Under the pieces are notes generated by a model. The model was not told where the DNA came from. It saw only the letters and a program-made list of their open reading frames with translations, and ran no database searches. A stretch of 63,846 bases of DNA, counting the filler, from Collodictyon triciliatum (Eukaryota): NCBI GenBank assembly GCA_043381765.1. It is 8 parts of 8 records of this genome, joined end to end, with 100 filler letters (N's around TTAATTAATTAA, not from the genome) between each part and the next. Parts side by side here need not be neighbours in the genome. Positions count along the whole stretch, not along the records: positions 16,682 to 24,916 come from JBHJMP010003516.1; positions 25,017 to 33,246 come from JBHJMP010003517.1; positions 33,347 to 41,576 come from JBHJMP010003518.1; positions 41,677 to 49,905 come from JBHJMP010003519.1; positions 50,006 to 58,234 come from JBHJMP010003520.1; 3 more parts are not named here. The stretch is one strand, 5' to 3'. Positions 20,701 through 53,721 of the stretch are shown in pieces (the stretch's first letter is position 1; each line of letters starts with the position of its first letter). The position numbers and the translations under genes were made by a program.

Positions 20701-23079
20701 GTTCAATAAATTTTCAAAGCTCCAGTATCTAGGTCTCATAGATACAAAGATGAACCACAACTCCGGAAACTACCTCCCCAGCTTCGTGCATTATACAGAG
20801 CCATTCAATTTAAGGAGCAAAAATGATAATTTTGTTTGTCCAACAACCAACTCCAAGCGCAGTCTTTTCGTCATGGTTGTGGACATTGACCCTGCATATT
20901 ACGACTATGCATTGTGCCAATGCTTGCCGAACTATTTTGGGTTCGGGATGAATTGCAGAAAGTGTCCGCCTGGATGTGAATGCATCGATGGGGTGTCGCT
21001 GAAGAATTGTCATGCATCACCTAATGTTATTGGCGTCAAAGACATCTTATACTGCCCTCGCCATGAATCATGTCACACAAAAATACCGGAGAAGCAAGCA
21101 AACACATCCAATCCTCCAGCTATCGAAAAGCTGTGCGAAAAAGGATACGAAGGACGTGCCTGCTCTAAATGTGAGAACGGATATGGCAGACAGGGATACA
21201 CATGCGAGAAATGCGAGGATGGGGCTGTTTACTCGACGATAGTTCTTGGGACACTTGGACTCTGTTGTTTAGTGCTCTACCTGTACCATTCAGATAATCC
21301 AACATCTGGTATTGAATCGTATTTGCAAACAATCAACCGTGTGTCTTCATTTGATTTCTCTCCCTTATTTAAGAGGATGCTAATAATCATAGTAAAAAAC
21401 TTTTTTTTTTGTTAATAAATGTAGAGAAAGTAAAAAAAGCAACACAAAACTCATGCTTACATCATACAGCCAAGTTGCGTATCATCATGTTCCATATGCA
21501 AACCATCTCGGTCATCTCGTCCGGCATCATCGTGCCGAGAGCTACTAGCAACCTGGTGGATCTGTCGTTCTCGATTGGGTCGATTCAACCCCCGAATCTC
21601 GCGTGTGTACTTGGATCAACTGACCAGATGGAAGCCTTGGTGTTCAGCTTCTTGAGAATTCCTGTGTTTTTGATTATTGGACTTATTGCGTATCATTCGG
21701 GGTCAGGACGCTTTCAAACAAAGGTTGGTCATCTTTGAAAGGATTTTTTTTAAGAACAATAGAAATAATGGTGTTTAAGTTTGCGATATCTAGTATATGC
21801 TTACTTCTTGAATCGAATAAAGGAAAAAAAAGTATATGCTTACTTCTCTTTTCTTTCCAATTTTTTCATTCGATTCTCGGACTTTAATCCGGGATTCATT
21901 TTTTTTTTAAGATTGATAAGTTCTGCGGATGATTCGAATTATAGGCTGTCTTCATCACCATAAACATGCTGTTCTTCATCTACTATTCAATCGCAAGAGA
22001 AGTCTTTGGGGTCTTTGGCTGCACTGTTTACGACCAAGGAGAAGATAGCTGGTATCTTCACAATAGCCCGTGGATTGAGTGTCAACCAGCATCTGCAGAA
22101 TACAGAAAATTGATTGGAATGAGTATTCCCGTCTTCTTGTTTTTCTTGATTGGATACCCAGTGTTCATATGGAAAAAGATCGAGGAAATGCAAAACAAGC
22201 CCGGATACGACCCTATAGCGAGATATGGATTTCTGTACTTGCCGTACAAAGAGGTTTGAGTTCAGCACTTGATTTATGACCTTTATATATTGGAACTCAT
22301 TAGAATTGAAAAAGAAGACACCTAGTAAGAATCTATGTTCCTTGAAGTGAATAAATGGAAAGAATATTGATTTTTTTCATCTACTTGCCAGCTTCCTTTG
22401 CCTTTCGAAAGATTTTAAACATGCACCACAACCTTCTGAATAATCAGTCGAATCAATATAATCGCAGAGCTACAGGCACTGGGAGTTTGTGATTATTATC
22501 CGAAGACTCGCATATTCCTTTGTCATGGGAATCATACCATACACCCAGCAACCAATTTTTTATCTTTTGCTGGTGATTGTCATCCAGGTAATGAAATTTT
22601 GATATGTTTTAATGCCACATTTTCAAGAATTTAATTCACATTGTATAACTTTGAGAGTGGTGGGGATTTAGTGATCATATTTGATTTCAAAGAAGGTGGT
22701 ATTATATGTCATATACGTGAAGCTTGGGTTGTGAACTTAGCTTTATTTGTATCATTTGATTCCATATTATCTCGACGGAGGCCAGTCGTCTATATGGATG
22801 CAGAACGAGCACCGCCCGTACAACAGCAAGCTTGAGAACCAAATGGAAATAACAAGTTTATATGTGATTTTCATCTCTTTTGCGCTATCTCTGCTTGTCA
22901 GCTTTCTTGGGCCACACACGTGGGCTACTACCCTCCTCATTGCAATTAATCTAATATGGTGGGTTACAGCCGTATTAGTGGGGTTCATTTTACCTCTTAT
23001 CAAGAAGGGAAATCCACTCAAAATAGTTTGGAAAGAACTGAAGCAGTTGTCCACCAGCGACCCCTGGTTTAATAAATAG
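17704..23079 (+). CDS. Receptor-like membrane protein: signal peptide, LRRNT cap, plant-type LRR array, Cys-rich region, multi-pass TM domain (TRP-like/GPCR-like)
   Basis: Hydrophobic leader TLSALLTLVILVVSSLCW; LRRNT LFKALEGNYW...WN...HCNWFGVKC; LxLxxNxLxGxIP repeats; CQCLPNYFG...CEKGYEGRACSKC; TM region KLRIIMFHMQ...FGC...WYL..SPWIEC...YGFLYLPYK...WEFVIIIRRL...PY...LENQMEITSL. Start codon unresolved (upstream of 17704). Confidence 0.85.
21809..21830 (+). mobile_element. Ultra-short poly(A)-tailed insertion TGAATCGAATAAAGG-A7 with 17-bp TSD (intronic)
   Basis: Flanked by the exact direct repeat AGTATATGCTTACTTCT at 21792-21808 and 21831-21847. Confidence 0.9.
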
Positions 23080-23415
23080 CATGTCGACCCGCAACTGAAT
23101 GTTTTGCTTGGAAATGAAGTCCCTGCGCCTTGTTTTGAGGCTTTCTATAAGTTAACCAAGCTTGTGGAAAATCGTGACCGATTAACACCAATTTGTGCGA
23201 TTTTCTTTCTCAGCCTTGCTTTTCATGAATCATGATTTCGTTCCTCTGGTTTCTTGAAAGACACCAGCAACCCAAAATAGCTATTGTATGAAAGATAGTG
23301 ATAGATATTCTGCTACTCATTTAAGGAACGCTTTAGGGTATAAGGAAGAAAGGGAAGCGCAATGGAGGACTCAAAAGAGCTGTTATAATGATATTATGAA
23401 CAAGAGAAGAGGTCC

Positions 23416-23440
23416 TTTTTTTTCCTTATTCGATTCAAAG
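23416..23440 (-). mobile_element. Copy of the ultra-short element (CTTTGAATCGAATAAGG-A8; 1-nt deletion), no clean TSD
   Basis: + strand reads T8-CCTTATTCGATTCAAAG. Confidence 0.7.
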
Positions 23441-24256
23441 AGGAGACGAGAGAATTTATATCAAGCGCAAAAAGAAATAGATATTAACAACTTGGATGCT
23501 ATCCAACGTCTCCCTTTGTCGATTTATTCATTTATTGATTCATTAACATCAACACTTCTGCTTGACTCGTCATATTTTTTTCACCCAACATCGGGGCGGG
23601 AATATGGAAACATGAATAGTTGGAATAAACTCTCATCTTCCTGGAATTCTTTTGGGTGAGATTTTCTATATATTGAATGTTCAGTGCTTGGGTTTGGATA
23701 TGAGCCTCTGCGGGTATGCAACGTAACAGCCTATGAATCCAACAAACCTCATTGTTGCCCGGTTGTGTTACGCTGGCTGCCAAGGCCCCCATGTCCCATC
23801 ATGCACCCCAGCGTCTAAGACGTTGTCATGAAGTGAAGATATCAAGGAAGAACCAAATTCTGTGCCAGATATCTGGGCGCCAGGTTCATCATTTTCTTGT
23901 CCTGCTTCTTGGTCTTTGGTAATATGCGTGTCATTGGGAGATTCTTCGCTGGGTTCCAGGGCAAACCTCCTTTCAATCTCGTCGCCTGCGTTCATAAGAA
24001 AAGATAAAGCATACTTACTATTATGATGCAAAATAGAATATCCACTGAGCGGATTAGGTGATCCCAAGGTGTTCAGCATTTGTGTAAATACACGAAAAAA
24101 AATATGTGATTCATGTTATTCAAATCAACTTTTTATTTATTGATTCCGACTCTCGCTATTAAAAGGTGTTGTGGTTGGACACAAAATCATATTTTTTTCA
24201 ATTATACACAATAATAAGAATTAACATAAATAAAATACAAAAATAGGGTCTTTCTG

Positions 24257-24655
24257 TTAGTCGACTGAGCAAAGCATACAATAACATCCGAGGATATGAA
24301 TTCCCCTCTGGTGCTTTCCATTTGTTTCATTTAATCGTTCCTCAGGCTTCTTTATCCACCACAGACGGCTAAACTCTTCTCTAAAGAAGCTGGGCACTAA
24401 ATACCTCAGTTCATTCAGCGAAGAACTTAGCTGGTCGTTGGAACACATAAGTTTTGACAATGACAAAATTGGTGATATCCTCTGGCTCAAGGAATCTCCA
24501 GATTTGTCGGTCACCTTAACTGAGAGCCAGAGAATGCCTTTGCCATTTGGGCTGAAGTCATTTACAAGACATCCTCCGTAGGCTGCGCTGCTCGTCTTCG
24601 CAACACCAAACATAGGGAAACTGTATACCTTTCCGTCAAAACTGCCCTCCAGAAT
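24257..24655 (-). CDS. Probable terminal exon of an unidentified gene truncated by the contig end
   Basis: AG acceptor at 24657-24656 in frame with a 132-codon open stretch ending in TAA. Confidence 0.45.
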   Translation of the reverse strand: MLEGSFDGKVYSFPMFGVAKTSSAAYGGCLVNDFSPNGKGILWLSVKVTDKSGDSLSQRISPILSLSKLMCSNDQLSSSLNELRYLVPSFFREEFSRLWWIKKPEERLNETNGKHQRGIHILGCYCMLCSVD

Positions 24656-24813
24656 CTAGGTGCGCGGATATCGGATTAATGAAGTGCTTTTTTTATTTGA
24701 AAGAGTCTCATCATATTACTCAGCCGTCTTTCGTTTTCCGCTCCCAAAGAATTAAGGGGGAAAAAAAAAACGTGTCTTGGGCATCAAAAGGGAGTATCAT
24801 GGTTTCTAATTGC

Positions 24814-24844
<31 letters not shown>

Positions 24845-25217
24845 CATACATACATACATACATACATACATACATACATACATACATACATACATACATA
24901 CATACATACATACATANNNNNNNNNNNNNNNNNNNNNNNNNNNNNNNNNNNNNNNNNNNNTTAATTAATTAANNNNNNNNNNNNNNNNNNNNNNNNNNNN
25001 NNNNNNNNNNNNNNNNAATTAAAAGGGTTACTAATATCCCTAATTGCAGGAGGGAAGGATTTACCATGCTCATATGAGCTCATCTTTTAATGTTGCCGGT
25101 ATCTGCTTGAAACTTGGGATACTCGTGAGGTGTGCAATGGGTATGTATCATCCAAAGAAGGATGCGTGATGTGACTTTTTCTATGTTATGATGCACCGGT
25201 ATTATCTTTTTTATAAT

Positions 25218-25243
25218 TTTTTTTTCCTTTATTCGATTCAAAG
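25218..25243 (-). mobile_element. Ultra-short insertion CTTTGAATCGAATAAAGG-A8 with 17-bp TSD
   Basis: Exact direct repeat ATTATCTTTTTTATAAT at 25201-25217 and 25244-25260. Confidence 0.9.
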
Positions 25244-27941
25244 ATTATCTTTTTTATAATAAAAAATTATGGAATACGTTCTAATAGATTCAGACATCAA
25301 AGCGGTGGTTACGTCAATTTGTTAGCCAAGATTGCAGCTCCTTTGGAGTATAGTCACTTGGAAATAATCGAATGGTTCTCATTTGGATTAAGCTAGTATA
25401 TGCAAAGACTTATTGGTGCAACAGTAATTCTGCATCCTATCTCGATATTTCAAATTTTATTACAATCAAAATCTCTTACACAAGTTGGAAGGACGGAAAA
25501 ACCTCTATCAAAATCATTCATATATATGCATTCATGCTTCACGATGGATATTATTTTTAATAAAGCACAAATGGGTAAGATCCATCAATAATTAACATTC
25601 CAAGGAAAACTATATGGTATTTATCAATTTAAACAAATTATTATAGAAAGGAACGAAAAGGAAGGAAATGGTTGTATTTTTTTTTGTTAGTACTGAATAC
25701 ATATATCTCCAAAATCGTGATGAGCCATGAATGCAACTTCTGTGCCCCGCTGGCCTGCACCTTAAACGACATGCGTCACTGTTTTCAACCAAGGTACAAA
25801 ACAATTATGTCGGACTGTAAAAAATCTAAAAGAGGCATGTTGTTATTCCAAGGAGGTTATAGTCCAAGATTCAAGTATAAATGGGATTCATTCACTATCA
25901 ATCTACAATTGATTGCTTCGCACGTACATGCGCAGGGGTTTGGTGATTATTATATTCACTTATCCATCATCAAGAAAACCAACAAATGAATTACACTATA
26001 ATGCGATGGCAATCTGTGGGCAGGGCACAAACCCTCTGTAAGTCGTTAATTACATAAACACAACATCTATATCTATTGACCCAATGACATGTGCTACACA
26101 AATCCCCAAAGAAACCAACTATTCAAAGAATATATCCTCTCACCATCGATTCATTCATGCAGGCTATCCTTGCCGAATAAGGTGGGATAGGCGCGGCGTT
26201 GAGCGCAGCGTGTATCTTTCTTATCTTGGGATGGCTGGGATTTGTAGCGCTCCACACTTAGAACCCGCCCTCGCTGATGACTGAACCACTAATGCGAGTC
26301 ACTACGCAAACTGGTGGGGTATTTTCCAACGGTTATACGCGGTGCCGTATCCTGACTCCGTGGGGAGCAGCCCCATGGCTTCAGCACGGCTCCTGACAGT
26401 AGTGTCTATTGTGGGAAACAATGCACCAACTGTCACGTCCCATGTGCGAACTAGACCCCCAAATTTTTTACTCTTTTATTCTTGACATTCTGCACGTGGG
26501 TTAAGGAATTTGGTTCAGGACAACAGAATACATACATTAAACAAAAGATTTAACCTAATCAATTTTTCTTATTCTTTGATATTCTTTGCCATTTACAATT
26601 ATATTCCACATCAAATTTATGAATGTGACATCCATAACCTATGATTTTTCAATAACATCAATCCACAATCAAACATCTAATCAGCATCAAAACCAATCTG
26701 ACTCGAATCCCTTTTTCCGTCCCCGTCCAAGCGCTACTGCCAAGTAACTCGCACTGAACCCACGGGTAAATCGCTCCTCATTGGGGCAATGCCTTTGTGC
26801 ATTAAGAGTCGGGATAAAGTCGTATGCAATCGGTAACGCCAAGTCCTTGCGACCAGGGTTATCCGTTTATTCAAGTTTCGTACTCCCTTTTTTTCGTTCT
26901 TTTCAAGGCGGGCAGCTTCAGCAACAACTCGCCTCGCAAGCGCGACCTTTTTTTTCTTCTTTTTTTTTTTGTGGCAGCAGCAGCAGCTGGTCGGTCGCCA
27001 ACCAGCCTTGAGTCTCGAGTCGAGTCGACCAGCAACTGTTGTCCGCAACGCACAGCCACTCACACAAGCATACACACTTGCACACACTCAAATGCGAGAC
27101 TCAAAGACCGCAAAGGTAATTTACTGCACCAGAATACGATGAAGTATTCAAACATAAGAAATCAATATTGAATTATTCCATATATCCAGAATAAACAATA
27201 TTGGAACATGGAATAATTTGCCGTCGCTGTGAGAAACCCCAAGGATTGCTCCCTCTGGACTTAAAGCGTTGACAACCTCATGGTAAGGAAGAAGATAAAA
27301 ACATGTATCACGAATAAACATTGAGATTAAAAGCACGGAGGAGCACACAAAGCAAACAAGAAAAGGAAAGTGGTACAATATATTCCGTACCATTATAATC
27401 ATAAATGTAATATTTCCGGAATTTACAATATTTGCGATTATTGTGGCACATATTGAATACTATGCCATTGAAATACCTGAATTATTAAACAAGCGCATAT
27501 TAAATACATAATTAGATATATAGTATTCAACGCTATTCATTTGCTTCTCACTTGTCTCAAAAACACAACAGAGCCAAACCACACACGAACACACGGCCCA
27601 ATCCGCCTACCATCTTATATATATAGAGATGTCTATGACCACATCGTCTTCTCGGAAAATTCGCCGGCTGCAGTGGGATTTTGAAGCTTCCTCCGTTCCA
27701 AATATATGTGTGGGTTTCCGTCTGTCTTCAACCTGCCAACAGATTCCTCTCTCGACGCGCTTGCCATTCTCTCTGTGTGCAACCTAACCACCCCACTCGA
27801 TCAACTCTCGTCCCGTTTGATCTGCCAAGCGCACTTGCGAGACCAATAAACACAGATTAAAACACTGACAGATAACCCAGCAGACTCGCCCACACAGTCC
27901 TCAGAACCTGTCCAAACCGCCTTCGCCCCTTTTCTCTTGAG

Positions 27942-29962
27942 ATGACCGACAAGAATGAGCTTTTGGAAGAGGTCCGAAAAATCTCTGGGGATGCCAACAT
28001 CGCCTCCCTGAAAAGTTCCGAGAGTCTGTCACTCTATGGCAAAAGCCTGACAACTGTTCCTCAGGGTGTTTTCTTGCTGACAGGTCTCAAGGTATTGAGT
28101 CTCTCTGGCAATCGGCTCTCCTTACTGGCACCGAAAATATCGTGTCTGTCTGGTCTCACATTTCTTAGTGTTCGTGAAAACAAGCTGTCATCGCTGCCTT
28201 CAGCAATATCCCGTTTGACTGGTCTCAGTGAGCTTGATGTTGGCGACAATCAACTGTCATCACTGCCACCAGAAATATCCCGTTTGACTGGTCTCAGTGA
28301 GCTTTATGTTAGCGACAATCAACTGTCATCACTACCACCAGAAATATCCCGTTTGACTGGTCTCAGTGGGCTTTATGTTCAAAATAACCCGGTATGTTTT
28401 TATTCCTTTGCTGTTCTGTTCGCATTCAGATTAAAATAGAAAGTGACTGACAGCGATTCATACAGATGGAAGAGCTCCCACCACAAATGACAACGCTGAC
28501 GAATCTGCTGAGACTCCGGATGTGGGATGGAAGCAAGGCTGACATTCAGAGGGCACCACGCGGCATAACAGCACTCCCGCTGTGGACAAACTCGAGTTTT
28601 TGTGACTACGAATACATCCACAAGATCAAACTCACCGATTCTGTAAGCACACACCTGCCCACCATTTACCAACCCAGAATCAATCCGCTCATCATTTATC
28701 CAACTCTGAGACAGTCTCCATCGACACAGGTCGCGACCAGCCCCAACGTCCTGCCAGGTATCTATGCTGCCCCAACACCAACATCAGCCCGAGGCCCAAC
28801 ACCAACACCAACACCAACACCAACATCCGCCCGAGGCCCAACACCAAAATCAGCCCGCGGCCCAACGAGATCGCCCCCTGCAGAAGACCCTGACAGCGCC
28901 CCGGTTGTTGGAGACTACGCAGACGTGATGGGGGTCGACCTCACCAGGCAGGAGGTACTCGGAGAAGGCAGCTTCGGGACGGCGTACAAGGTGCAGCTGC
29001 GCAAGGGCACGGTGGCTGTCAAGGTGCTCAAGAAGAAGGCGAAGCCAGGAACGGCAGGGTACGAAGATCTGACGGGCGAGGCGAGGCTGATGTTGGAGCT
29101 CTCGCACACAAACATCATCGGCCTCTACACCTACGGCTGCAAGAGCCAGACCATCTTCTATGTCATGGAGTACGCCGACGGTCGCAGCATATGGGACGTC
29201 ATCAAGCCGCCCGCGGGCAGTGCGATACCTTTCGCCGACTATATCCAGTACTCACTCCACATCAATGCCGGCCTCAAGTACTTGCACACACGCACCCCGC
29301 CCGTGGAGCATCGCGACCTCAAGCCTGAGAACGTCCTCCTCTGCCGCGGTGTTGCAAAGATATGCGACTTTGGCCTCTCCACAGCCCGCGAAACCATCTC
29401 CCGCACGACCGGCTTCAGAGGCACACTCCACTACGCTGCCCCAGAATACTTTGACAGGGACAAAGGCTACGGACCCCTGAGCGACATTTACACCTTCGGC
29501 CTAGTTATCTGGGCCATGGCTGAGGGCAAGCGCCCGTACGATGGTCTTAACATGGGCCAGATCATGAACGAGAAGCTGCAGCAGAAACTCCCGCCGATTC
29601 CCTCCGCCACCCCCGCCAAGCTGGTCGCCCTGCTAAACCAGTGTTGGTCCTTCGAGCCGCGTGGCCGCCCCTCTGCGACCGACTTGGAGTTCAGGCTGGC
29701 CGACATCAAGACAAATCCAGACCCCGACAATGGCAAAAAGAGGAAATCTGTCAAGGATATGACAAACCCCGAGCTTGTTGCCTATCTCAAAGAAAAGAAC
29801 GTGTTGTCAAACTTCGTATCTGTGATTGAAAAGATGGAAAATTTTCCTGGGCGATTGTTTATCCAATTGGTGGAGCGTGACCTAACCTTTGCCCCCTTCA
29901 ACTTAGGAGAAACACAAGCTTTTCTCATTTTTGAAATAATCAAAGAGGCAAAAACCTCTTAA
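27942..29962 (+). CDS. LRR - Pro/Thr linker - tyrosine-kinase-like (TKL) protein kinase - SAM-like domain
   Basis: LRR exon 27942-28391, intron 28392-28465. Kinase motifs GEGSFG, VAVK, HRDLKPEN, DFG, GTLHYAAPE. C-terminal VKDMTNPELVAYLK...FPGRLFIQL is SAM-like. Possible extra in-frame intron from 28643. Confidence 0.92.
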
Positions 29963-30206
29963 CCAGATTTCTCACATACCCATAATTCCTCCTCTCGTTT
30001 TCCCGATTATTGATGCTTATGCCCACCCGGCCTGTGAGACTCATCCCCACCTTCCCACGCCCACCACATCTCAACCCACACAACAGAATAAAGTTTACTA
30101 TATGAAAAGAGAACTGGCTGCGTCCCTTCTGGTGGCGAGAACTGTAATTAACTCCGTTTTTTGGGTGGCAAATAGTTCGTTAAGAAGCTGGTCGGTCTGC
30201 GGGAAG

Positions 30207-30236
30207 TTTTTTTTTTTTCCTTTATTCGATTCAAAG
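30207..30236 (-). mobile_element. Copy of the ultra-short element (CTTTGAATCGAATAAAGG-A12), no clean TSD
   Basis: + strand reads T12-CCTTTATTCGATTCAAAG. Confidence 0.8.
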
Positions 30237-30700
30237 TGCAGCGAGGTTATGCCATGCATGAGGTGAGAAAAACGTTCATGGTAGGGAGGCAACGCGAGTA
30301 GGAGAAGACACTACTGTGGAGAGGCTTTCACTGGAAAGAACTCAGTGATAGCGAGTTGGTCAGGTGGGCGGCCCAAATGGTTGATTGGCTGCGTGGGAAG
30401 CAGGGGTTGGATATGTTGCGGGATATATCTTTAGACACATCACCACATCTGAAGCGAGGATTGGGTTTGGGTATTCGTTTCTTGCATAGAATCGCCACAC
30501 CTGCGAGTCGGTTGATTATCGTCACAGGACGACATTTGTGGACCTTTCCATGATTCATTATTGGTTAGATTGTCAGGGCTGAGCCATGTTTCTTGGAGGC
30601 AGATGATGTCTGCATGAGTGAAAAGAGCAGTGTTTAGGGCCTCTTTTCTTTTTTGGGGGTCGTTAATACCCCCAACGTTCCACAACAGAACGTTAAAATA
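30237..30700 (-). mobile_element. Decayed non-LTR retrotransposon APE-type endonuclease fragment
   Basis: LLWNVGGIND...ADIICLQETWL, then after a frameshift AGVAIL, and later NVFSP (NVYAP-like). These are the ordered motifs of LINE apurinic-type endonucleases. Frameshifts and stops are present. Confidence 0.8.
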
Positions 30701-31593
30701 TATGGATAGTCTATTAGGTTTTGGAGGCCGTTGAGTCTGGTGATTAAACCTCTCCGCTGGAGCTGGGTTGCTCAGAGTGGGATGGTTTACTCGAGTTACT
30801 CTTTATTTGGCTGTTACCATAATTGCTTGTGATTCTGCAAATTTTCACTCTATGAACAAAACACATAATTCTCTCTCGTATTGTTACTGCATAAATTCAT
30901 TGAGGTCTTTCTGTTGCTGTGTCTAACATCGTCGAACTGGCCGAAGCATTTATTACGTCTCCATCTGAGGCTGAACAGTTCTTAAAAAACTTTCAGGAAG
31001 CAGGCTCTTCGGCTCGTAAGAGGTACAGAAGCATTTTGACAGGTGCTACAACCTACAAGTTTCAACAGAACGAACGAGTCATTTCCTTTGCATTCCTGGT
31101 ACACTGCATAAGGGCAGTAACATGTTTATTTTCTTGGCTGTAATATACACTTTTTGTTCTACTCCTGTTTTCATGGGCTTTAGTCTAAGTGGAGCTGGTG
31201 TTGTCAGTTCCATTATTCATCTTCTCCGTTCGTGACTTTCTTACATCCTTCAAGGGGTATCTTTTATTTCAAATTTAATGAGTGAATCTGAACACTGTTT
31301 AGCGCATATATTCCTTGGGTATTGCTTGACTTCGCAAATAATACTGTAGATATATATTGAATTACCAAAAAACAAAAAACAAAAAACAAAAAACAAAAAA
31401 CAAAAAACAAAAAACAAAAAACAAAAAACAAAAAACAAAAAACAAAAAACAAAAAACAAAAAAATAAATAAAATAAATAAAAAACATATAAAAAGAAGAG
31501 CAAGGAGCTCTTTCACGTTTTTATTTGGGTTCATGAAAATCACGAATTTTTGTTCCAATCGTTTGTAAGAAAGGACATCTAAATTCTCGTGCT

Positions 31594-33151
31594 TCAAGTG
31601 CTAATCAGCTTCGTCGATATATCGGATTCCAAGTACCAGTTCACCGATATCATGGCTGATTCCTTGTCTTTGTTGTTTGATTTTGCAACTTGCTAGAACC
31701 GGGATGCGCTTATCCAGACCCTTTAAGTCTTCAGCATTCAGCTTAATTATGATTACCAAGTTAGTGAAACACGAACCAAATTTTGTAGGAAATAAGGGGA
31801 TTAAATGAATCCAACAAATACTTCAGCAGCTCCAATCAGCTGACGATCGGTTCCTGTGACAACAACCTTGATGCCATGGCTCTTGACTACCTGTGCAATG
31901 ATAAATTTGTTAGAATGAGTGTCGTGTCACTCCGGGACGTAAATCAATTACTCTTACAGACTCTTCCAGTGAGAGAAATCCGAGCCTCAACCAAACATAG
32001 TTTCTCTTGTCCCTGGTGGGTTCACTAAAGAGCTCGTGTCTACGATTTACGGCCATCAAGCAAACTTGTTTATAATGAATGCAAATGCAATAAAAATAAA
32101 CTTCATAGGGGTTCTTCCAAAAAAAAAATGGAAAGGAGCGGCCGGATTTGAATCTTACCCCGCCACAGTAATTTTGAGAATGACTTGTTGGTCAGGGATA
32201 TTCTCCAGCGTTAGGTAAGCAGACTCAAAAATCAAAAGGGAAGGCTGCTCAATTGTGACATCCCACCTAAACTCAATCCATCCCTTTAAATCTTTAATCT
32301 TGGGCTGCATATAATGATAAATACGATTAGCATGGCAGTTCAAAGGGAACGATAAACAAGAAAAACATAAACATTCATCGGTGTAGCTACAGATTGATAA
32401 ACGAGAAGACTTCAAGATATCTAATTAATTGACATTCATTCGTCTAGTATGGAGTTTTATGTTGAAGAAGAGTAAGATGGAACGTACATTGACTAAATGT
32501 GCACTCTGCGTGCCGGAAGCCGTCAAAAGCATTGTGACAGGGAATATGCATTTACCTGAGGATGGTTTAGGTTTGAATAAGAATGATAGAACAACAGGAT
32601 TGAACGGTATATACCATGAATCTGACTCACCCATCTCTTCTGGAACACGAAGAGGACCATCACTATCATAGAGCTCAATCACTAGTTTTTCGTTCTCGAC
32701 ATCAGACAAGCTGCTTACTTCCAACTTGGCTTCATGAACACCTTCCCAAGTAGGATTCAGGTCTGTTTTGGGATTCGAGACAAGAAAATAGCGAATAAGG
32801 TCAGGAGAGTTACATATGCTAAATATGTCTAATTATATCAAGGATATATTTGATGACGAACGCACTTTTAGGTATAACAACAGACTGGTACGCTGTTTTA
32901 TCTTTGTATTTAACAACGAAGAAAGGATCAGAGGTCACTAGTTTTCCTAAAAAATTCCTAACAGCCGATTCAGTTCATACTTGTTGAGCAAACAGTCAGG
33001 ATGAAAAACTTCATTTCAAATGTGGGATGGGAAGTTCATGGAGATTATAAAAAGCAGACTGGAGAACAGAATAGAAAAAAAAGGAGTACATGTCAAGCGC
33101 AGGTAACTCATGGCCTTTGACCTCGGAAAACTTGAGCACGTATACCGGCAT
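31594..33151 (-). CDS. Multi-exon C2-domain protein
   Basis: MPVYVLKFSEVKGHELPALD|GKTSDPFFVV...|NLNPTW...LVIELYDSD is a typical C2 signature. Later beta-rich exons end ...STKLIST*. Confidence 0.8.
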
Positions 33152-33346
33152 CTTTCAAAGTTTTGGGTAGAGTGAGTGATTTAAATGCATGAAATATTTG
33201 TTTCAGATACATAGACATAAAACAAAAAGACAAGATGACAAAAAAANNNNNNNNNNNNNNNNNNNNNNNNNNNNNNNNNNNNNNNNNNNNTTAATTAATT
33301 AANNNNNNNNNNNNNNNNNNNNNNNNNNNNNNNNNNNNNNNNNNNN

Positions 33347-33423
<77 letters not shown>

Positions 33424-33522
33424 AAAAACAAAAAACAAAAAACAACAAACAAAAAAAAACAAAAAACAAAAAAACAAGGAACAGAACCTGCGACCGCACG
33501 CAGAACCCAAGCAAAGCGCACG

Positions 33523-34029
33523 ATGCAAGCACAGTTTGCCCGCCACTACCCGCCCCCGCAGTACATCGAGGAGGCCGAGCCAAGCAGCAGCCGCAGCACA
33601 CATCCCGCCCCACTCGGCGCGTGTCCCTCTTCTGCGCTTTCCTCCTACTCGTCCGAAATGCCGCCGCCCTCCGCCGCCCTTCTGAGTCCGCAGCCGCACC
33701 TACAAAGCCCCACAGTACCCCCGCCACAGGGCCACTCCCAACTGCCCGTCCAGTCCACGTATTCGCCTGTCCACTATCCTGCCGTGTATGTTTTCAGTCA
33801 GCCGGGAAATACTTGCATATTACGCGTTTTCTCTGTAATATCATTTTTCTCTCTTTTCTCTCTCTTTTTCTCTCTCTCTATTTGCAAACGCGTTCATCCA
33901 AGTCAACTCATGAAAATTATGCAGCCCAACATACACGTCCCATTATCCCCCGGCATATGGAGGAATGTACGCCCCGCAATACCAGTCGCAAGAGCAACAG
34001 TATCAACAGCCATATCAACACCAATATCA

Positions 34030-34060
<31 letters not shown>

Positions 34061-34895
34061 TCCTCTTACTTCACCCAGCAATACGTCATGCCGCCATTTG
34101 GCCAAACATATACATATCCAGTGGCTCCGTCAGCCCCGGCTTATCAAGCTCTCCCTTGGGTGTGTTTTATTTTCTACTCGCTACTTTATGCGGCTGAAAT
34201 TCATTCTGTTTGGAATTTGCCATCGTGGTCCCGCATGTGACTATATTGTCGTCGAATGGGCGATGATTTTTTATCTACATGCCTTTCTCTTCAATACTAG
34301 GTTCTCGAGAACGACCCTTCCGACAGGCTCACTCTGCACGGCGACCGATTGACAATATCTTTAGACTCTAGAGGAAGTGGCTATGCTCTGGGCACCCTTC
34401 CGCTCTCAACCGGAAGGTAAGTGGATGGAAGAAATCGATCCATTTTCATTCCCATCGCCGATCTGGCTGAAAACATCAAGCATTTCACAATTAAATAATC
34501 TACTTCCCCCCACTGCAAGATGGAGCTGGTCGGTCAAGATAAACAGCCTCCACAAGACATGCGAGGTTGTGATGGGTGTTGTGCAAAAGAACCCGACGCT
34601 GCCCACGGACTACATGGCCTCGTACTCGTCCTATTCATGGAGCTCCACTGGATATGTTTTCTCAAGTGCCGGTCCGAGCGACCCATGTCCTCGAGCCCGC
34701 TGCGACGCCGGTGACGTTCTCCACTTTGTCCTGGACGTTGCAAAGTCGTCCATCAGCATGACAAACACGCGCACAAATGCAACTGTGACGCAGCCGCTGG
34801 ACAAAGGAACAATCGAGGAGCGCGGCCCGTTCTATCCTTACATCCACATGTCCACCTTCACAGATGCCATCTCTGTCAGTGTGTTTTCTTCGTAG
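33523..34895 (+). CDS. Pro/Gln/Tyr-rich N-terminus plus SPRY/B30.2-like domain protein, 4 exons
   Basis: The spliced frame gives GYALGTLPLSTGR|WSWSVKIN...VVMGVV...GDVLHFVLDV...FYPYIHM, a SPRY pattern. GT-AG junctions are phase-compatible. Confidence 0.8.
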
Positions 34896-35757: not shown

Positions 35758-36184
35758 CCAGCTCTACAAGCAAGTAAGCAAGCACATACCATAAATATAG
35801 AAGATAAGAAAAGAGAAAGGAGGAGCGCAACAAGACAACTCATGATGGCTGAATTTGTTTTTACAATGCTGTTGCGGCCACTCGAACGGGTTGGCGAATT
35901 GGGCCCCGGCTCAACGTAATCATGAGGCGAACGGACGGGCGTGTGCGCGTTCTGGCCTTCCTGTTTTTGCTCTTGGCTTCGGCTCGGTGCGATGGCTGTG
36001 CGCCACTGTTCCGATTTGCATATTCCAATCGACAGCGAGTCGAATTCCTGTGATGTGGTGGTGGGTATTGGGATTCGTCAGTGCCAATGGCATTTGCGTG
36101 GTGGCTAATCAAAAAAAAAAAAAAAGATGAAGATATAAAGAGGAGCTAAGAGCTCTTTCGAAATGACAATATAAGGGGCTAGCA

Positions 36185-37062: not shown

Positions 37063-37151
<89 letters not shown>

Positions 37152-40100: not shown

Positions 40101-40992
40101 CAAATTAGAGGTCTTGCACAGGAATAAAAAAATAGATATTCTGCTTACAAAAAAAATATGTATGAGATGCGATTCACCTGTCCGGTGGACTTTTCTGTGG
40201 CTTCAAGGTATTCACCTGCCAATGGAGGGTCAACCGCCTTGAAAAATAACAAACTTCTCTCGATTCTCCTTATGAGTAAAGCTGGGCGAAACGGGTTTTG
40301 CACAAAGTCGGTCGCGCCCAAAGAAAGTAATAGATCGATACGCGTCTCATCTACCTGAGTCTTGGGAGCTGACCCTGATGCAACCACTGGAGAGTAAAAA
40401 GGAAAAATTAGCGATATGAAATTGCTGATTTGAAATTAATAAAGTGTCAGAACAGTTGACTCTCATGTCTTAGGTGCGCTGCCTAATTATGCAAATATCG
40501 ATTCAAGGCTAATATACGAATAAAGTATGTAGCAATATTGATAATGAAATGGATGGGGATAAACGATCAGCACTACCTATCACGTCAGTTTGTGACAAAG
40601 AAGCGCCCTCGCTCATTATTTGTAGAAGTTGGGCGGCGTCAACAAATGGAGGGTTATCCCAGCAGACTATTATGCGTATAGATGCGTCTCTCTGAAAATG
40701 CTCCACAGTGTCCCCCATTTTATGCAGATGTACCACTAAATATCAGTTTTATTGAGAGAAGGCTTATTAGAAAAGTGTCTGAACTAAGCGTGGGTGGTTT
40801 TTTAGGAAACAGCAGCAGTCTGATAGAGATCCTTGGGGTATCACCTTTGAAACTAGCACTGACATTTTCGGTAATCTCTTGAGCGCATCTCGCATCCGCT
40901 TCAGATGAGAAGAATAAAACAGTACTCCTGGATGCGGTATTGTCTCTTGTCTGCAGAGAGAGTCCTCGAGATTCTGTCGGCTCTGAAGGCAT
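36185..40992 (-). CDS. Class I cyclic-nucleotide phosphodiesterase with N-terminal receiver-like domain and coiled coil (RegA-like architecture)
   Basis: NPYHNF|HAVDVLH, ALCHDLDHPGVNNAF, LENHH, LHTADLGN...WSERVMAEFLSQ|GDIEK...SPYMDR, NFIDFIVLPL. Receiver-like LSLGATDFVQNPFRPALLIRRI. Start may lie in an upstream exon. Confidence 0.9.
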
Positions 40993-41676
40993 CGGTGTTG
41001 TAACGCTCAGCTATAAGTCCATCATTATTGAAAACAAAGTAACAGCATTTCTAGAAAGAAAGACCAGTGATAGAGTCCTTAATAAAGATATTGAAATCAC
41101 GCAATGAGGTATATGGCGATGATGATACTAAAAACTAGTGCTGGTAAAATAAAATCATAATACTGTAAAGAGACACAAGGCGTCCCCCGCTTCTATCGTT
41201 TTTTTTTTTTTTTTGTTGTTGTTGTTGTTGTTGTTGTTGTTTTTTGACAAACCTTCCGTTGTGTGACGGTTCGTGCGTATTCGATGTCGGCAGCAAATAG
41301 CGGGGAAGTATCCCTCGAATCCTGTGTGAATCCATCAGTGTGAAGCGCACCGCTGCCCGATTCGAATAAGCCTGATTTTTCCGCACTGGTCATCAACACT
41401 GGGGCGCTGCCTCTTCGTGCATCCCCTCTTCGCAAATACGCAAACGTGGACATTCTGGAAAGCCTCTACAGTTTCGGTTTTTTGTTTTATTGTTTTATTG
41501 TTTTATTGTTTTATTGTTTTATTGTTTTATTGTTTTATTGTTTTATTGTTTTATTGTTTTATTGTTTTATTGTTTTNNNNNNNNNNNNNNNNNNNNNNNN
41601 NNNNNNNNNNNNNNNNNNNNTTAATTAATTAANNNNNNNNNNNNNNNNNNNNNNNNNNNNNNNNNNNNNNNNNNNN

Positions 41677-41775
<99 letters not shown>

Positions 41776-42413
41776 AAACGAAAAGTTGGGCAATACGAAG
41801 TTGACTTGAAATAATGTTGCGATTAAGAAGAAGAAAAAAAATAATACTAACGCGTAAAATGAAATAAATGGCGAACAAAATATTTAAGTGACACAGAGGC
41901 AAAGCGCATTGAGTTGTTGATGGATCGATCCTCACCGAATCCTTTCCGGCCGGGAAAATGACCGAAAGGCCGATTTAAAAATATGCTTCTGACGGAAAAA
42001 AAAAAACGATGATTTTGATCAAGAAAAAAATTCGAACATTTGAATCGTCTCATGTACTTATTTGGACGTTCTGCAACTCTATTAGTTCCAATCTTGCACA
42101 AATGCGTACTGTTATCGAGACATATTTGGGAAGCTTCGCAAAAGTGTTTGTTGTAGTGGACGAGCAATAGGTAGCGCTTGGCAAAAAAGAAAGAGTCGTG
42201 ATGGTTGTGATAGATGTGTTTATTCGATACTCGGTATGGTGTTTAGATGGCTCTGGTTTCATCGTCAAGTATCCGGGTTGATTATATCGAGGCGAGAGAT
42301 TAGTGTTGCCATATATATAAAAAGATAATTCATAGAACAATCTCATTTACCTTATATTTTTGTTTGGCAATGGCATATATATATGAAGAGTTGTTTTATT
42401 TATTTTATTTATT

Positions 42414-44608
<2,195 letters not shown>

Positions 44609-44738
44609 TCTGTAGGCTGTCGGATCTCGCTGGTTTTGCTTGTGGCAGAGTTCTCTGATTTTTTTTCATGGTTTGGTTTATTCTGCTTCTGTGTGCTTTG
44701 CTAGTTCATGTCATTTGTGGTATGGCTGCAGGGTTGGT

Positions 44739-47672
<2,934 letters not shown>

Positions 47673-47900
47673 TGGGCGTCTGGTCTTCGGTGAGCCTTTG
47701 GGAGGGGAGGCAGCGGGGTTTGTCAGAAGTTGCTTGTCACGCGTGTTGGTTTGATCCCACGACATGGAGTCTGTTTGTGTGCAGCGCGGCTTAAAACGGC
47801 CTCTATTGGCTGTGGTCGGGTGGTGACGAAACGACGCGGCTCGTCCTGATAAGGTATGGTCAACCTAGTTTGCCGACACTCCCGCGCTTGATTTTCAATC

Positions 47901-48739
47901 ATGATTCTCTCGCGTGGTAGAGAAAAAAGCCTGACCCGTCCAAGGCTTCCCAAGCCAGCCAGTTCTTCTGGTTCCAACACGGGCGCGGAAAACCCCCGAG
48001 TTGCACGTAAGTCTAGGAAGACCCGTGCAAGGAAGCCGCCTGCAAGTCTGTCTGATCGGACAGTATTTTTGCATGGGGTCGAGCAAGTAGTTCACAAAAA
48101 GAACAAGGCCCGCAGGCTCACAGATGCGGTCGCCTCCTTCTTGAAAGCGAACAAACTTTGGGAAGAGTCCATCCAATTGCGCTTACCAGACAATGAAGGC
48201 CTTTGCCAATCGCCTTCCGCACTGCAGAGAACGCCCGAAAGCTTCTGGAGCTGAGGCAGGTAAGTTTGATCGATATTACGATCAGCTTCAGCAGAAGTAA
48301 ATCAACAAAGACTTTGGTGATGCTCTACCAACTACCGCTGGACGTGTGGCCGCAAATGCTTCGTGAGGAGCTGAAGCCGTTCAGACCGACCCACGTGGAG
48401 ATCAAAAAGGACAAATGCTTCTTCACAGACACAGCCGTGGTGAAGCTTCTTTGCCACAAGAACCAGCTCCCTGCAAAGTTTACGGTCATGGGCAAAAAGT
48501 ATCCAAAGCGCATCCTCAAAGAGCGTCTGCCAGCTGCGAACAACAAACGGCAAGTAAAAGCGCCGCAAAAGAATACACCTGCCAAGCGGACAAGCAGCAA
48601 CAAGGTCAAGGAATCCAAGGCCAGGCAACAACTGAGCCCGCAAGACTCACAGCAGATACGCGCATACAGCGACAGCGACGATGACGTGGAAGGAAATCTC
48701 GGCTCCTCTTCAGAATCCTGGCACTCGAGCCCTCCATAG
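47901..48739 (+). mobile_element. Frameshifted ORF1-like (RRM-type nucleic-acid-binding) remnant of an L1/Tx1-type non-LTR retrotransposon
   Basis: Two overlapping intronless ORFs (47901-48254, 48203-48739) read as one protein: DRTVFLHGV...IAFRTAENARKLL...VMLYQLPLDV...LREELKPF...LPAKFTVMG. Family assignment is from pattern memory only. Confidence 0.55.
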
Positions 48740-50006
48740 CCAACCACCGACAAGCCCGCACATCGCAAGACCCAAGAGCAGCGCATCTCCAAACCCCGAA
48801 AGCAATCTCCACTAAACTACCCATTCATACTGACGTGAATATGGTCAACATAGGAGGCCTCAAGGCAGTCTTCGTTACTTGTCCGAAAAGATACCCCAAA
48901 GCAAAGGCATCACAAGAATCAGCGCTATACCAAAGATAGTCCGTTTATTCTGCCCCAGCCCGTCGCACCGAGAAACAAGGAGCAAGAGCAAACAGCACAA
49001 GTCGAATCCAAGCTTGGAACTTTACACACTAAAGACAGTCCGAGCAAGCAGGAGCGTATGTTTCTAATACCACAAATGCGTATCCACACTCCGGTTAAGC
49101 GAAGTCCACTGCCGGCTACGCATGGCTCCGAAACCAGGGGACGGTCAAGCGCCACTTCCACTAATTCCAGACAAACAACGATGTATCGCTTTTTGTCAGA
49201 GTCGCCCAGCAAGAAACGCAAGGAAAGTGACCCGTTGTCCCCTCAAAAGACTCACCCAGTGGAATTAAATAGGATGCAAACCTTGTCTGAGATAGATGGT
49301 TGAAAGGACTCGTCGGAATCGATTTGAGAAGTGACAGCCATGTGCGTACTTACATCGACCCAACAACTTTCTCGGCTCTTTATAAGTGTCCAATACAACC
49401 AGAAATCGCGTTGGAGCTGATTCACCTCGGGTAGAATAGTCTGTGTGTGAGAACACCTCCTTTCATTCCTATCTTGTTTTCTTTTTCCTTTTTCTTTTTC
49501 TTTCAAAACACAAAAACTCCAACCACACAATCTAAGGTCTTCGCACTGTCTCGTCCACAGCTCGTTCTTGTCCTAGAGGCGAAGGCGGTTTCCTTGGCTT
49601 TGTTTTCTCTCAACAGACTGTTCAATGACCACTACATCGCCTCATTTACTGGCAGGTTTACTTCGTAGCGCGCGTTTCTCTGCTTTTTTTTTATTCATTG
49701 TGGGGTGGCGACAGCTGTTCGGCAGCATAGAATTGGGGTCGGGTGGGGAGGGACGCGACATGGTAGAAGCTTCTGCCGGTCGATCTGTAGAGGATAGTTA
49801 AGTGTCTACTACGTGAAGGTTGGAGCAGGTGGGTGATATGGATAGGGTAAGGAAAGCGTTGTTTGTTTGTGGGTCAGTATTTGGGACACATTTCGCTCAT
49901 TATCTNNNNNNNNNNNNNNNNNNNNNNNNNNNNNNNNNNNNNNNNNNNNTTAATTAATTAANNNNNNNNNNNNNNNNNNNNNNNNNNNNNNNNNNNNNNN
50001 NNNNNA

Positions 50007-50098
<92 letters not shown>

Positions 50099-50134
50099 AA
50101 TAGAGTCTAATGGCAGCCATATGAGCCAACCAAC

Positions 50135-50260
50135 CGGATTGGAGCCGAGGCTCATCATACGAGGACGAAACGGGCCGCTTCGAAAGGAGACTGGCTTTCT
50201 TTTCCTTAGCTGATCTTCGGAAACAAGGGACGAAGGCTGCTGCGGCTCCTCCGTAGCCAT
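50135..50260 (-). CDS. Possible first coding exon of an unidentified gene truncated by the contig end
   Basis: 42 codons MATEEPQQ...LRKRK...SNP followed by a GT donor and a (TTTC)n intron. Confidence 0.4.
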
Positions 50261-50796
50261 GTCGCGCAAGGTAGCCCCTTGGTTCGATCTCCTGGCTCTG
50301 CTCCTCCGCTCCTGGCCTTTGCCTACACGCGCATAGCTGGGCAATGATCAAAGCGATCAAAGAGGCGGACTCTTTTCTCGTTGGCCTTCCCCGTCGCCGT
50401 TTCCGCCTCTGTCCTTTCTCCTCGCTCACCGAGAAGGCAGTCAATTCATCCGAGACATTGACTTTTCAAGCCCTCTTCACTCTTCGCTCAAAAAGAAAAA
50501 GAAAAGAAAACGTCGAATCTTAACAGACGCGTTCTTTCTCTTTTTCATTCCCTATATATTTTCTTCTGACAAGCAAAGCGAGCAAACGGCGCCAGGCACG
50601 CCAGAAGGCAGAGCGACGGCAGTGGACTATGGATAAGTTTATGACGGGAGGGAGGGCGTCCTGGGCAGGCGCGAGAGAGCATCCACGCGCAGGCTGCCAA
50701 GACAGGGCCATGAAAGGAGCGAGAGAGAAGAGACGTCCGCACAGCACAGGAAAGACAGATAGCAAGAATAGAGAGGGCGAGGGGGCACGCAGCGGC

Positions 50797-52649
50797 CTAG
50801 TTTGCGGGGGGCTTCCGCTCGTAGGTCCTGCGGCGCTTCTCGTCGACCTGGGTGAGGTAGAAGGTGCCGGGCCAGAGGCCGTCGGTGGAGTCGGACGGGG
50901 TGTAGCTTCCGGCCAGGTAGCGCTCTTCGCGCAGGCGCAGGGCGGCAACAAAGTCGGCCGGGGTTGCGCGGGCCCGCTTGGCCAGGCGGTCGGTGATGGC
51001 GGTGGCGGCCAGCAGCGAGTCGAGCGAGCCGACGACGCGGATGGTGAAGAGCGACGAGGCCAGCCCCGACCCGTACGAGAAGAGCGCAATGCGCTTGTGC
51101 AGCAGCCCGTCCTGCGCGCCCTTTGTCGTCAGCAGCGACAGGAGCCCCGAGTACAGCGACCCCGTGTATGTGTTGCCCAGGTTCTTTGGCAGCAGGCACG
51201 AGGGCGCAACCTTGTGCTCGTAGCCGGACGCGCGCTGGGCGTCTCCCGATATTGCCAGCGTCGCCTTCTCCAGCTCCCGCGAGCTGTACGACTCGCCCTT
51301 GTCCAGGCTGCCGAATGCGCTCAGGCTCTGCAGGTCGCTCTTGGCCGGCTGTCGCTTGAAGTCGTTGTAGAACTGGGCAGGGTGGTGATGCCGGATTAGG
51401 TATGAATGAGTGGATGATTGATAGATTGTTGTTGTTGGCGTGTTGTTGTTGGCGTGTCGGGTGTGATCTGGAGGGAGCAGCGTACCAGGCGGGCGTAGGA
51501 CTTCTGGACAAGCTTGTTGTACGGGGCGTGGAAGACAAAGAAGTCAAAGTCGTCCACAGAGACCTTGCGCTGCTCCTGCTGCTCGATCTTGTCGACGAGG
51601 CCGTTGTAGCAGGCGTCCAGGGCGCCCAGGTAGCAGTTGATGGAGAGCAGGCCGTCCACATATGGGTACTCGGACTTGAGGTCCGGCTTGTAGAAGTCGT
51701 AGGCGTGGTCCATGTGTGTGAAGCGGAGGCCTGCGCCGTGGTTGGTTCGGTCAGCGTTTCGTGACATCCAGGCGGGTAGTCAGGGTTGGGAGAGGCTTTG
51801 GAACGGGGCTGGCTTTTTGCTCGCGGTGCTTATGTGGCGCCTGACGAGACGAGAAGGGAGAAGAGAAGAGAGAAGAGACTAGAGACTCACCGCGCTCAAA
51901 GACAATCGGGGCGTTGGGGCCGACAAGCATGGCCACGGCTCCGCAGCCGCCGGTCGGACGGGCAGCCCCGGCAGCGTAGACGGCAATGTCTCCGGCCACA
52001 ACGAGGGCGTAGCGGCCGTCCCAGTAGCTGCTTTCCATCCAGTTGATCGAGTTGAAGAGCGCAGCCGTCCCGCCGTAGCAGGCATTGATGTTGTCCACAC
52101 CTGCGGCAGGGGAAAGGGAAAGGTGGGTGGGTGTTGGTCGGTGTGCTTGCGTGCCCGCGTCACTTCCCGCAGTGGCATGATTACTCTGTTGCTGTGTCAA
52201 GATGTCAACGTGTCAAAGTGTCAAAGTGTCAGGCAGACGCACCTTCCAGATTGTGGTTCCCGGCCTCGGCGAAGAGGCGCAGCAGATTGGTCTTGACGGA
52301 CTTGGACTTGTCGATTAGGGTCTCGGTGCCCACCTCGAGGCGGCCAATATCCTTGTAGGACAGGCCGAACTTGTCGACCAGGTTCTGCACGACTGCGGAG
52401 AGAAAGAGAGAGAGAGGCAGGGTGAGTGGTCAGCAGGGGCGTCACGCAGCGACAGGCGGGCGTACCTGTCAGGCAGATGGACACGATGTCCTCGCGGTCG
52501 CCGACAAAGGCCATGTTGTCCTGCCCCAGGCCGATGGTGTACTTGCCCTTGGGAATATTGTCGAAGGCCTCCAGCTCCTCCTGGTTGACGTACGTGGACG
52601 GGAAGTACATGTCCATGGCCACAATGCCGATGTTGTCTGGTCTGCTCAT
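50797..52649 (-). CDS. HMGS: Hydroxymethylglutaryl-CoA synthase (mevalonate pathway), 5 exons
   Basis: GKYTIGLGQ...[36 protein letters not shown] (catalytic Cys); [45 protein letters not shown]. Confidence 0.98.
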
Positions 52650-53648
52650 TCTGTCGGCGGTCTGTGTGGGTATGTTTGCCGGTGGTGTCTACGGGGTTTG
52701 CGGGTTGTGTGCTGAGTTGTGTTGTCTTGTGTTGTATAGTGTTGTGCTATGCTTCCTTCAACTCATGTTGTGTTGATAAAATTGTGTGTGTGGGTGAATA
52801 AGCACGCTGCTTATATGCAGGCTGCGAAACGGCCCTGGTGTTGTCTTTTAGTTCATTCAGGCCACAGTTCTTGCCACAAGACAGACACATGATGTCACTC
52901 TCTGTGGCTTTGTTTATACAATTATTTTCTGTTGTTAATTTTTTTTTCCATGAATTTTGGTTTTAGATTCGATTTGATTCGATCGAAATGAGTTTGGCTG
53001 GGACAGAAATGAAATCAGTCTGTAGAATGATACATGCGGGAACCGGGGCTGGGTTTTTGGGATATTTTGTTGTGATAGAAAACAGCTAAAAAGTTTGCCT
53101 GAACGCAAAGGAAAGCGTCGGTCTTTTTGTGACTATTCTTGATGTTCTAGTTTTTTTTTCTTTTTTCTTTTCTTCTTCTTTGTTCATGTGGGTTGATGGG
53201 ATTGATGGAAGTATTCGCCGCTTGGTTGCTTGCTGGGTTCGTAATGGCGGGGTTTTTTGAATTCCCGTAATCGATGAAAATGTGGATTCCCCATATTAGT
53301 CGTGTACAATGGCCGGGATTCCCACCATTCCCATGAATCTAACACTAACGTTTTGAGTGGAAGCATGGGAATAGCGGATACCCGAATATGACACACATCC
53401 TGTAGAGGCTTATTTTATTAAAATTGTTTTCCTATGATATTTGATATAATATTACTATATATGTAGACAAATGGATCATTAGTATAATATAATAGAATAT
53501 TACACATAATATCCACAATTGGATATAGAGGTGCTTGTGGCTTTCTTCTCTTGACCTGTTAGCCCATTATTTTCCGTGGGTGCGGTAGGAACTGGCGAGC
53601 GGCCGGGTTTGCTGCTCATTGCGAATGCGCAAGGAGGCTAGCGATAAT

Positions 53649-53671
53649 TTTTTTTTTTCCTTTATTCGATT
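53649..53671 (-). mobile_element. Ultra-short insertion (TTG)AATCGAATAAAGG-A10 with 19-bp direct repeat (3 nt shared with the element as microhomology)
   Basis: Exact repeat CAAGGAGGCTAGCGATAAT at 53630-53648 and 53672-53690. Confidence 0.9.
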
Positions 53672-53721
53672 CAAGGAGGCTAGCGATAATAGACTAGTGC
53701 TACTCTTTTGACTATCTGACT

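Follow-up and report, generated by a model that had tools for sequence, protein, structure and literature searches.

A 63,846-nucleotide stretch of the Collodictyon triciliatum genome (assembly GCA_043381765.1; hereafter the window) contains five copies of a short A-tailed motif, four of which we refer to as stubs. We consider it probable, at roughly 80%, that the stubs are dead, extremely 5′-truncated copies of an L1-type long interspersed nuclear element (LINE), with copying stopped at a stem-loop in the 3′ untranslated region (UTR). The parts of this reading differ in strength. That an L1-type LINE ends in this motif is highly probable, and a stop imposed by the stem-loop after 18 bases, taken alone, falls somewhat short of even odds. 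The underlying mechanism is known; the extreme shortness of the inserts and their near-fixed start are the unusual part. Throughout, c1 to c5 denote the five motif copies, and negative positions are bases counted back from the poly(A).

Motif copies and their target-site duplications

The window is made of eight contigs of ~8.2 kb joined by N-spacers, most of them ending in simple repeats; they derive from an intron-containing eukaryote and carry many leucine-rich repeat (LRR), kinase and F-box genes. An earlier note on this DNA had reported a family of 22-30-nt poly(A)-tailed insertions, proposed as a ‘nano-retroposon’, with five copies on three contigs and in both orientations. The copies are where it placed them, on three of the eight contigs, with c1 on the plus strand and c2, c3, c4 and c5 on the minus strand. 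Five matches at up to three mismatches compare with a mean of 0.09 in shuffled sequence (maximum 2; none of 100 shuffles gave five). All five copies are A-tailed, with runs of 8, 8, 9, 12 and 11 A in c1 to c5, but the core said to be shared is less uniform, its full 18 nt being exact in c3 and c4 only, with one or two mismatches in c1, c2 and c5. Likewise, the AATAAA hexamer described ahead of the poly(A) is found in four of the five copies and is missing from c2.

Three copies sit between exact direct repeats, whose sequences differ from each other. Copy c1 (21792..21847, plus strand; motif 21809-21830) is flanked by a 17-bp duplication (21792-21808 and 21831-21847) and has a 22-nt insert comprising the last 15 LINE bases, or 16 with a 1-nt microhomology, and A7. 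Copy c3 (25201..25260, minus strand; motif 25218-25243) is likewise flanked by a 17-bp duplication (25244-25260 and 25201-25217), and its 26-nt insert consists precisely of the final 18 LINE bases and A8. Copy c5 (53630..53690, minus strand; motif 53649-53671) carries the last 13-16 LINE bases plus A10 between repeats at 53672-53690 and 53630-53648. In each of these three copies one A of the A-run is part of the duplication. The perfect repeats of 17, 17 and 19 bp noted previously are exact, with the refinement that the duplication of c5 is better given as 16-19 bp, because the final three bases of its 19-bp repeat also match the LINE end. Each of the three duplications starts at a T|A step, after which comes KTAT. 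Among 57,401 non-low-complexity 16-mers, the closely spaced exact repeats are these three duplications and two tandem repeats in coding sequence (near 28205-28300 and 28787), with no others. Recent activity, which had been concluded from the perfect repeats, is bounded only by the absence of mismatches across 53 duplicated bases, as perfect repeats were the search criterion.

The two remaining copies differ in kind. Copy c2 (23416..23440, minus strand) is a 17-nt LINE tail plus A8; it matches the LINE to -18 with one deleted base, an A of the hexamer, and a possible diverged extension would move its 5′ edge to about -27. Copy c4 (motif 30207-30236, minus strand) is the 3′ end of a longer LINE fragment and ends in A12. 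The proposed unit length of 22-30 nt therefore describes c1, c2, c3 and c5 and does not describe c4, which closes a LINE fragment spanning about 500 nt or more. The reported density of five in ~63 kb is similarly correct for motif matches, while the stubs number four in 63.8 kb of short contigs, and such contigs may not represent the genome.

We found no evidence in support of a library adapter, primer or assembly artefact as the source of the motif. Patterns of 23 nt built on it gave one match in metagenome contigs and none in viral contigs or prokaryote genomes, which is not the behavior of an adapter. The single match is a natural end of an ORF2 (open reading frame 2) 3′ UTR, and three different exact duplications flank the copies, making an artefact exceedingly improbable.

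The motif as the 3′ end of a probable L1-type LINE

The metagenome contig with the single match (L001) encodes a zf-RVT ORF2 C-terminus (E 1.5e-07), followed by a 93-nt 3′ UTR that is closed by the motif and A10. Contiguous matches to the LINE end, as represented by c4 and L001, extend over 16 nt in c1, 18 nt in c3 and 16 nt in c5.

Copy c4 links the motif to ORF2 within the window itself. Its 3′ part (30207..30450, minus strand) contains the last ~45 ORF2 codons, with stops, a 92-nt 3′ UTR and A12. This part is identical to L001 at 207 of 243 nt (E 3e-75), and because the match spans this length, c4 is not a 30-nt unit. Its 5′ part (30448..30703, minus strand) encodes ORF2 residues 1-86, the start of an APE endonuclease (PF03372, E 1.2e-05), with a frameshift after residue 64. 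In a tblastn comparison with P0002, in which PF03372 is also found, this endonuclease start agrees at 87.5% over residues 1-64 and at 72.7% over residues 65-86. The two parts are joined directly, with ~3 shared bases at the joint, a figure taken across two copies of 85% similarity. Both ends of c4 match the same four full-length ORF2s of 1226-1275 aa, which carry endonuclease and reverse transcriptase domains in four of four cases and zf-RVT in three of four. Because an L001-like tail is fused to an APE-endonuclease start, we read c4 as an internally deleted LINE, which would have lost roughly 1,150 codons, or ~3.4 kb, of ORF2. It may represent one isolated deletion event or belong to a non-autonomous family; one copy of the joint is known. 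The 5′ end of the c4 element was not found. By eye, a decayed ORF1 remnant is possible upstream of 30703, at about 30700-31050.

Domain order, rather than a tree, points to an L1-type LINE as the parent. RVT_1 is carried by relatives at 25-38% identity, and the reverse transcriptase of the motif-bearing LINE is not itself among the recovered sequence. Searches with the L001 C-terminal protein gave no further LINE 3′ ends among 29 candidates from viral contigs and 290 from prokaryote genomes, and none of 403 candidates scored as a longer relative of the L001 protein. The earlier note had suggested looking for full-length LINEs ending in the motif; L001 and c4 both carry it behind ORF2, and neither is intact and full-length. 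The combination of poly(A), variable duplications of 16-19 bp and identity to a LINE end bears out the proposed origin via target-primed reverse transcription (TPRT) through non-long-terminal-repeat machinery. The notion of a separate unit unlike a LINE copy has to be given up, since the motif is a LINE terminus that also ends a longer, deleted copy in the window (c4) and L001.

Inserts of nearly one length, present several times in 64 kb, are what one would expect of a self-propagating short interspersed nuclear element (SINE) of minute size, in which the stubs themselves are transcribed and re-inserted. However, the stub sequence is identical to the LINE end and leaves no room for a promoter, and neither ARAGORN nor Rfam gave a match in the window. 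Read-through from a host promoter would carry flanking sequence along, yet the 5′ flanks differ, each being the duplication of its own target. We therefore regard self-propagation as very improbable, and the label ‘nano-retroposon’ does not apply to an insert that is wholly LINE tail, with no promoter-bearing head and no copy of a copy seen.

Two further observations concern the LINE and its surroundings. The ORF2 end contains Q-x-x-I-x-x-F-F, which we take to be a PIP-box-like motif, at about 30335-30360 (minus strand) in the window and at 205-260 (minus strand) in L001; it is also present in P0004 and P0009. The two flanks of the LRR-kinase gene, at 26960-27000 and 30150-30200, share a T-run and the motif GCTGGTCGGTC in the same orientation, and the poly(A) of c4 adjoins the second of these.

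Stub start points and a predicted 3′-UTR stem-loop

The 5′ junction of c3 is blunt at -18, with no microhomology, while target and element overlap by 1 nt in c1 and by a 3-nt microhomology in c5. An 18-nt cDNA that lost bases during joining would account for both of the latter, as would shorter cDNAs. The edges of the three duplicated copies lie within 4 nt, for which uniform models give p 0.004-0.04 and a fitted geometric model 0.10; with four copies the corresponding values are 0.0002-0.007 and 0.03. The 23 GG+A6 sites in the window include no shorter duplicated stub, and comparison with L001 revealed no clear LINE copy of 20-200 nt in the window. The four copies in the window suggest a preferred stop.

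A possible structural source for such a stop lies immediately upstream of the copied bases. A six-pair stem-loop is predicted at positions -40 to -19 (30237..30258, minus strand), with all six pairs canonical in both available sequences (L001 and c4). Its foot adjoins the 18-nt boundary, base -19 being the next template base after the 18 copied. Conservation between c4 and L001 is concentrated in this region, with 38 of 40 identities in the last 40 nt and 37 of 53 in the remaining UTR (Fisher p 0.003). Within those 40 nt the two sequences differ only at -38 and -21, which are partners in the stem, forming U-A in L001 and C-G in c4; a compensatory pair of this kind arose in 14 of 780 random double transitions. 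A second, terminal hairpin is possible at -18 to -2 (30220..30236, minus strand), which is the stub sequence itself; it appears in the alifold consensus but is poorly supported by folding, with a closing-pair probability of 0.006-0.094.

The position of the boundary between two predicted hairpins, together with the blunt start exactly at -18 in c3 and probably in c2, would also fit a template that was already short. Here the LINE RNA would be cut between the hairpins (-19/-18) and the 18-nt piece with its poly(A), held by ORF2p, copied fully, such that a stub represents a whole ~26-nt RNA. Copies c1 and c5 are shorter than 18, however, and the runs aligned to the window (X1-X4, over positions 18900-24780) are contigs, which cannot show RNA ends. 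Contigs in X1 and X2 are spliced and come from the same or a close organism, and X3-X5 share only 0.05-0.06 of words with the window. We judge a pre-cut template to be distinctly unlikely.

A further hypothesis dispenses with any special stop. Poorly processive copying or early second-strand synthesis would produce copies of every length, selection against longer inserts and the collapse of longer copies in short-read assembly would leave mainly stubs, and the position of the hairpin would be coincidental. Contigs of ~8.2 kb that mostly end in simple repeats and introns of 58-294 nt are in keeping with this, the three duplicated copies do not depart significantly from the geometric model (p 0.10), and Ylli elements are likewise rich in short fragments (104 of 30 bp-1 kb; PMC5014426). 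Premature second-strand synthesis is, moreover, a published truncation route (PMC7617806). On the other hand, selection and assembly should not tell an 18-nt stub from one of 10 or 30 nt, and neither a shorter duplicated stub nor a clear 20-200-nt copy was found in the window. We consider this hypothesis unlikely, though more credible than a pre-cut template.

Two structural candidates were set aside. As a stable structure, the stub hairpin had z-scores of -0.02, -0.43, 0.68 and 0.46 in four stretches, and reached -2.45 only for c5 with target bases included; the c3 stub alone does not fold, nor does the stub cDNA. A likeness to a tRNA T-arm on the opposite strand was abandoned, with no tRNA (ARAGORN) or Rfam match in the window.

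Proposed mechanism

A nick in the target, the use of poly(A) for priming and a staggered second nick are all established in LINE biology. In the mechanism we propose, ORF2p would nick the target, prime on the poly(A) and copy the LINE RNA, with a staggered second nick yielding the duplication. Reverse transcription would stall once 18 bases have been copied, where it meets the foot of the stem-loop (-40 to -19); a role of this stem-loop as a protein-bound recognition signal may be the reason. The 18-nt cDNA would then be joined bluntly (c3 and probably c2) or trimmed to a microhomology of 1-3 nt (c1 and c5). Selection in a gene-dense genome with introns of 60-300 nt would, together with assembly bias, enrich the short class, and c4 would be an older LINE copy minus ~3.4 kb of ORF2.

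Individual steps have precedents. Duplications generated by TPRT are usually below 20 nt (PMC7617806), and both microhomologies and truncation are common for L1 (PMC2912911). Alu elements are truncated at positions that match stem-loops and lie immediately 3′ of SRP9/14 sites, and pausing of ORF2p has been proposed there (PMC4666360). Stem-loops in the 3′ UTR are required in stringent LINEs and are present in algal L1 (PMC5135761). As a tentative extension that we would not bet on, the stop could be a built-in checkpoint, in which the stem-loop recognized by the reverse transcriptase also blocks the template, or marks it for cutting, at 18 bases, such that most attempts end as a fixed ~26-nt stub.

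Several points count against truncation at the stem-loop as the origin of the stubs. There are only three or four junctions, a clean start at 18 with a duplication occurs only in c3, and two of the four copies start at -16 or later; under the geometric model (p 0.10 and 0.03) the clustering of edges is not clearly significant in this window. The stem-loop is weak (-1.9 to -3.8 kcal/mol), was found post hoc and is known from two sequences, with which the shuffle control is uninformative (245 of 500). On its own, L001 folds better in a different register, one that takes in base -18 (-4.0 versus -1.9 kcal/mol). No target-site duplication was found around c2 or c4 by exact search or by degenerate search with up to five mismatches, and no intact full-length element of the motif-bearing LINE was seen. 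Finally, no empty alleles were seen in the aligned stretch with c1 and c2, X1 and X2 being spliced past the c1 intron and X3 and X4 having neither cover of c1 nor a piece bridging c2.

Comparison with known retroelements

The parent element resembles human L1 in its ORF2 family, with APE endonuclease and zinc-binding domains and a reverse transcriptase presumed from its relatives, in its poly(A) end and in the short 5′ microhomologies of its copies (PMC2912911, PMC7617806). Duplications below 20 bp (with a peak at 14-16 bp for full-length L1) and truncation as the commonest product are further similarities (PMC2912911, PMC7617806). In contrast to human L1, the stubs hold only 13-18 element bases, under the 50-bp floor of one survey (PMC2912911), and start within ~4 nt of each other. 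Their targets are also different, with T|A followed by KTAT in three of three cases rather than an A-run.

Alu truncation points fall at stem-loops, directly 3′ of a protein-binding structure (PMC4666360), much like the boundary next to the stem-loop predicted here. Those copies, however, are a minority (16%) of SINE copies and are cut near the 5′ end (PMC4666360), whereas here the 3′-terminal structure of the LINE itself would stop copying almost at once, in four of the five copies in the window. Stringent LINEs, including algal and monocot L1, have a conserved 3′-terminal stretch with a stem-loop near the poly(A) (PMC5135761), comparable to the one predicted here. The excerpted text of PMC5135761 does not tie these stems to ultra-short insertions, and binding by ORF2p is putative in the present case.

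Like SINEs, the stubs are short, non-coding, A-tailed, flanked by duplications and mobilized by a LINE. They differ in being wholly LINE-derived, without an RNA polymerase III head (neither tRNAs nor Rfam families matched in the window), and in having about a quarter of the length of Platy-1, reportedly the shortest SINE example at ~100 bp. The loss of function of c4 through an internal deletion whose joint shares few bases recalls Hebe of bdelloid rotifers and GilD of Giardia (PMC2861651). The deletion in c4 is ~3.4 kb, compared with 12-200 bp and microhomologies of 5-14 bp in Hebe (PMC2861651), and unlike in Hebe and GilD, the family of c4 is heavily 5′-truncated as well.

Our literature search returned no report of LINE-tail inserts below 30 nt with a fixed start, a weak negative given that coverage was incomplete and supplements were outside its scope. 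At least one survey of insertions set its lower limit at 50 bp (PMC2912911), so stubs may have been overlooked elsewhere. Pausing, early second-strand synthesis and host repair have all been considered as causes of LINE 5′ truncation. If our reading is correct, a family that stops near one structural landmark would make truncation testable by counting junctions and by mutating a single stem. If a checkpoint exists, its stubs would be a product class of their own, open to counting yet too small for repeat surveys; genome sequence would then reveal how TPRT passes from initiation to elongation, and the checkpoint could let an active LINE persist in a gene-dense genome. Stubs should also be good presence/absence markers between strains.

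Genomic setting of the copies

Copy c1 lies within a 221-nt intron (21724-21944) of an expressed LRR gene, as defined by X1 and X2 (joint 21721-21943, GT..AG at cut +2). An origin of c1 as a splice-donor duplication was ruled out, since the intron begins at 21724. Two convergent genes flank c2 with their 3′ ends, a plus-strand gene whose contig ends at 23058 and a minus-strand gene with a loose poly(A) end at 23511; c2 is 70 nt beyond this poly(A) site. Copy c5 is ~30 bp ahead of the first ATG of a plus-strand ORF, which by eye looks like a DnaJ-domain gene. The introns whose 58-294-nt range is given above are those of the aligned stretch. All of c1, c2 and c5 thus occupy non-coding positions, as selection would predict.

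An expressed multi-exon gene at 17387-23080 (plus strand) encodes LRRs, a Cys-rich stretch and, by eye, several apparent transmembrane segments. At 21018-21085, inside a plus-strand coding exon, one X1 contig skips 66 nt with CT..AC ends, the signature of a minus-strand intron; the skip would represent either an antisense transcript or a paralogue.

Other features of the window

At 4783-8247 (minus strand) lie two ORFs of 276 and at least 886 aa, both long and without introns; neither has a Pfam match, and they are next to a 725-aa LRR gene. Their Atlas look-alikes are weak (at most 0.79), and two of the top three are viral clusters, which is a lead only; the region is possibly a viral or mobile insert. 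Two contigs share an A-run with a ~20-nt motif, at 31470-31514 and 36111-36159 (78% over 49 columns, E 8e-04), possibly another small dispersed repeat. A 47-nt direct repeat, 87% identical, is found at 46708-46754 and 46949-46995, with the two units 241 nt apart.

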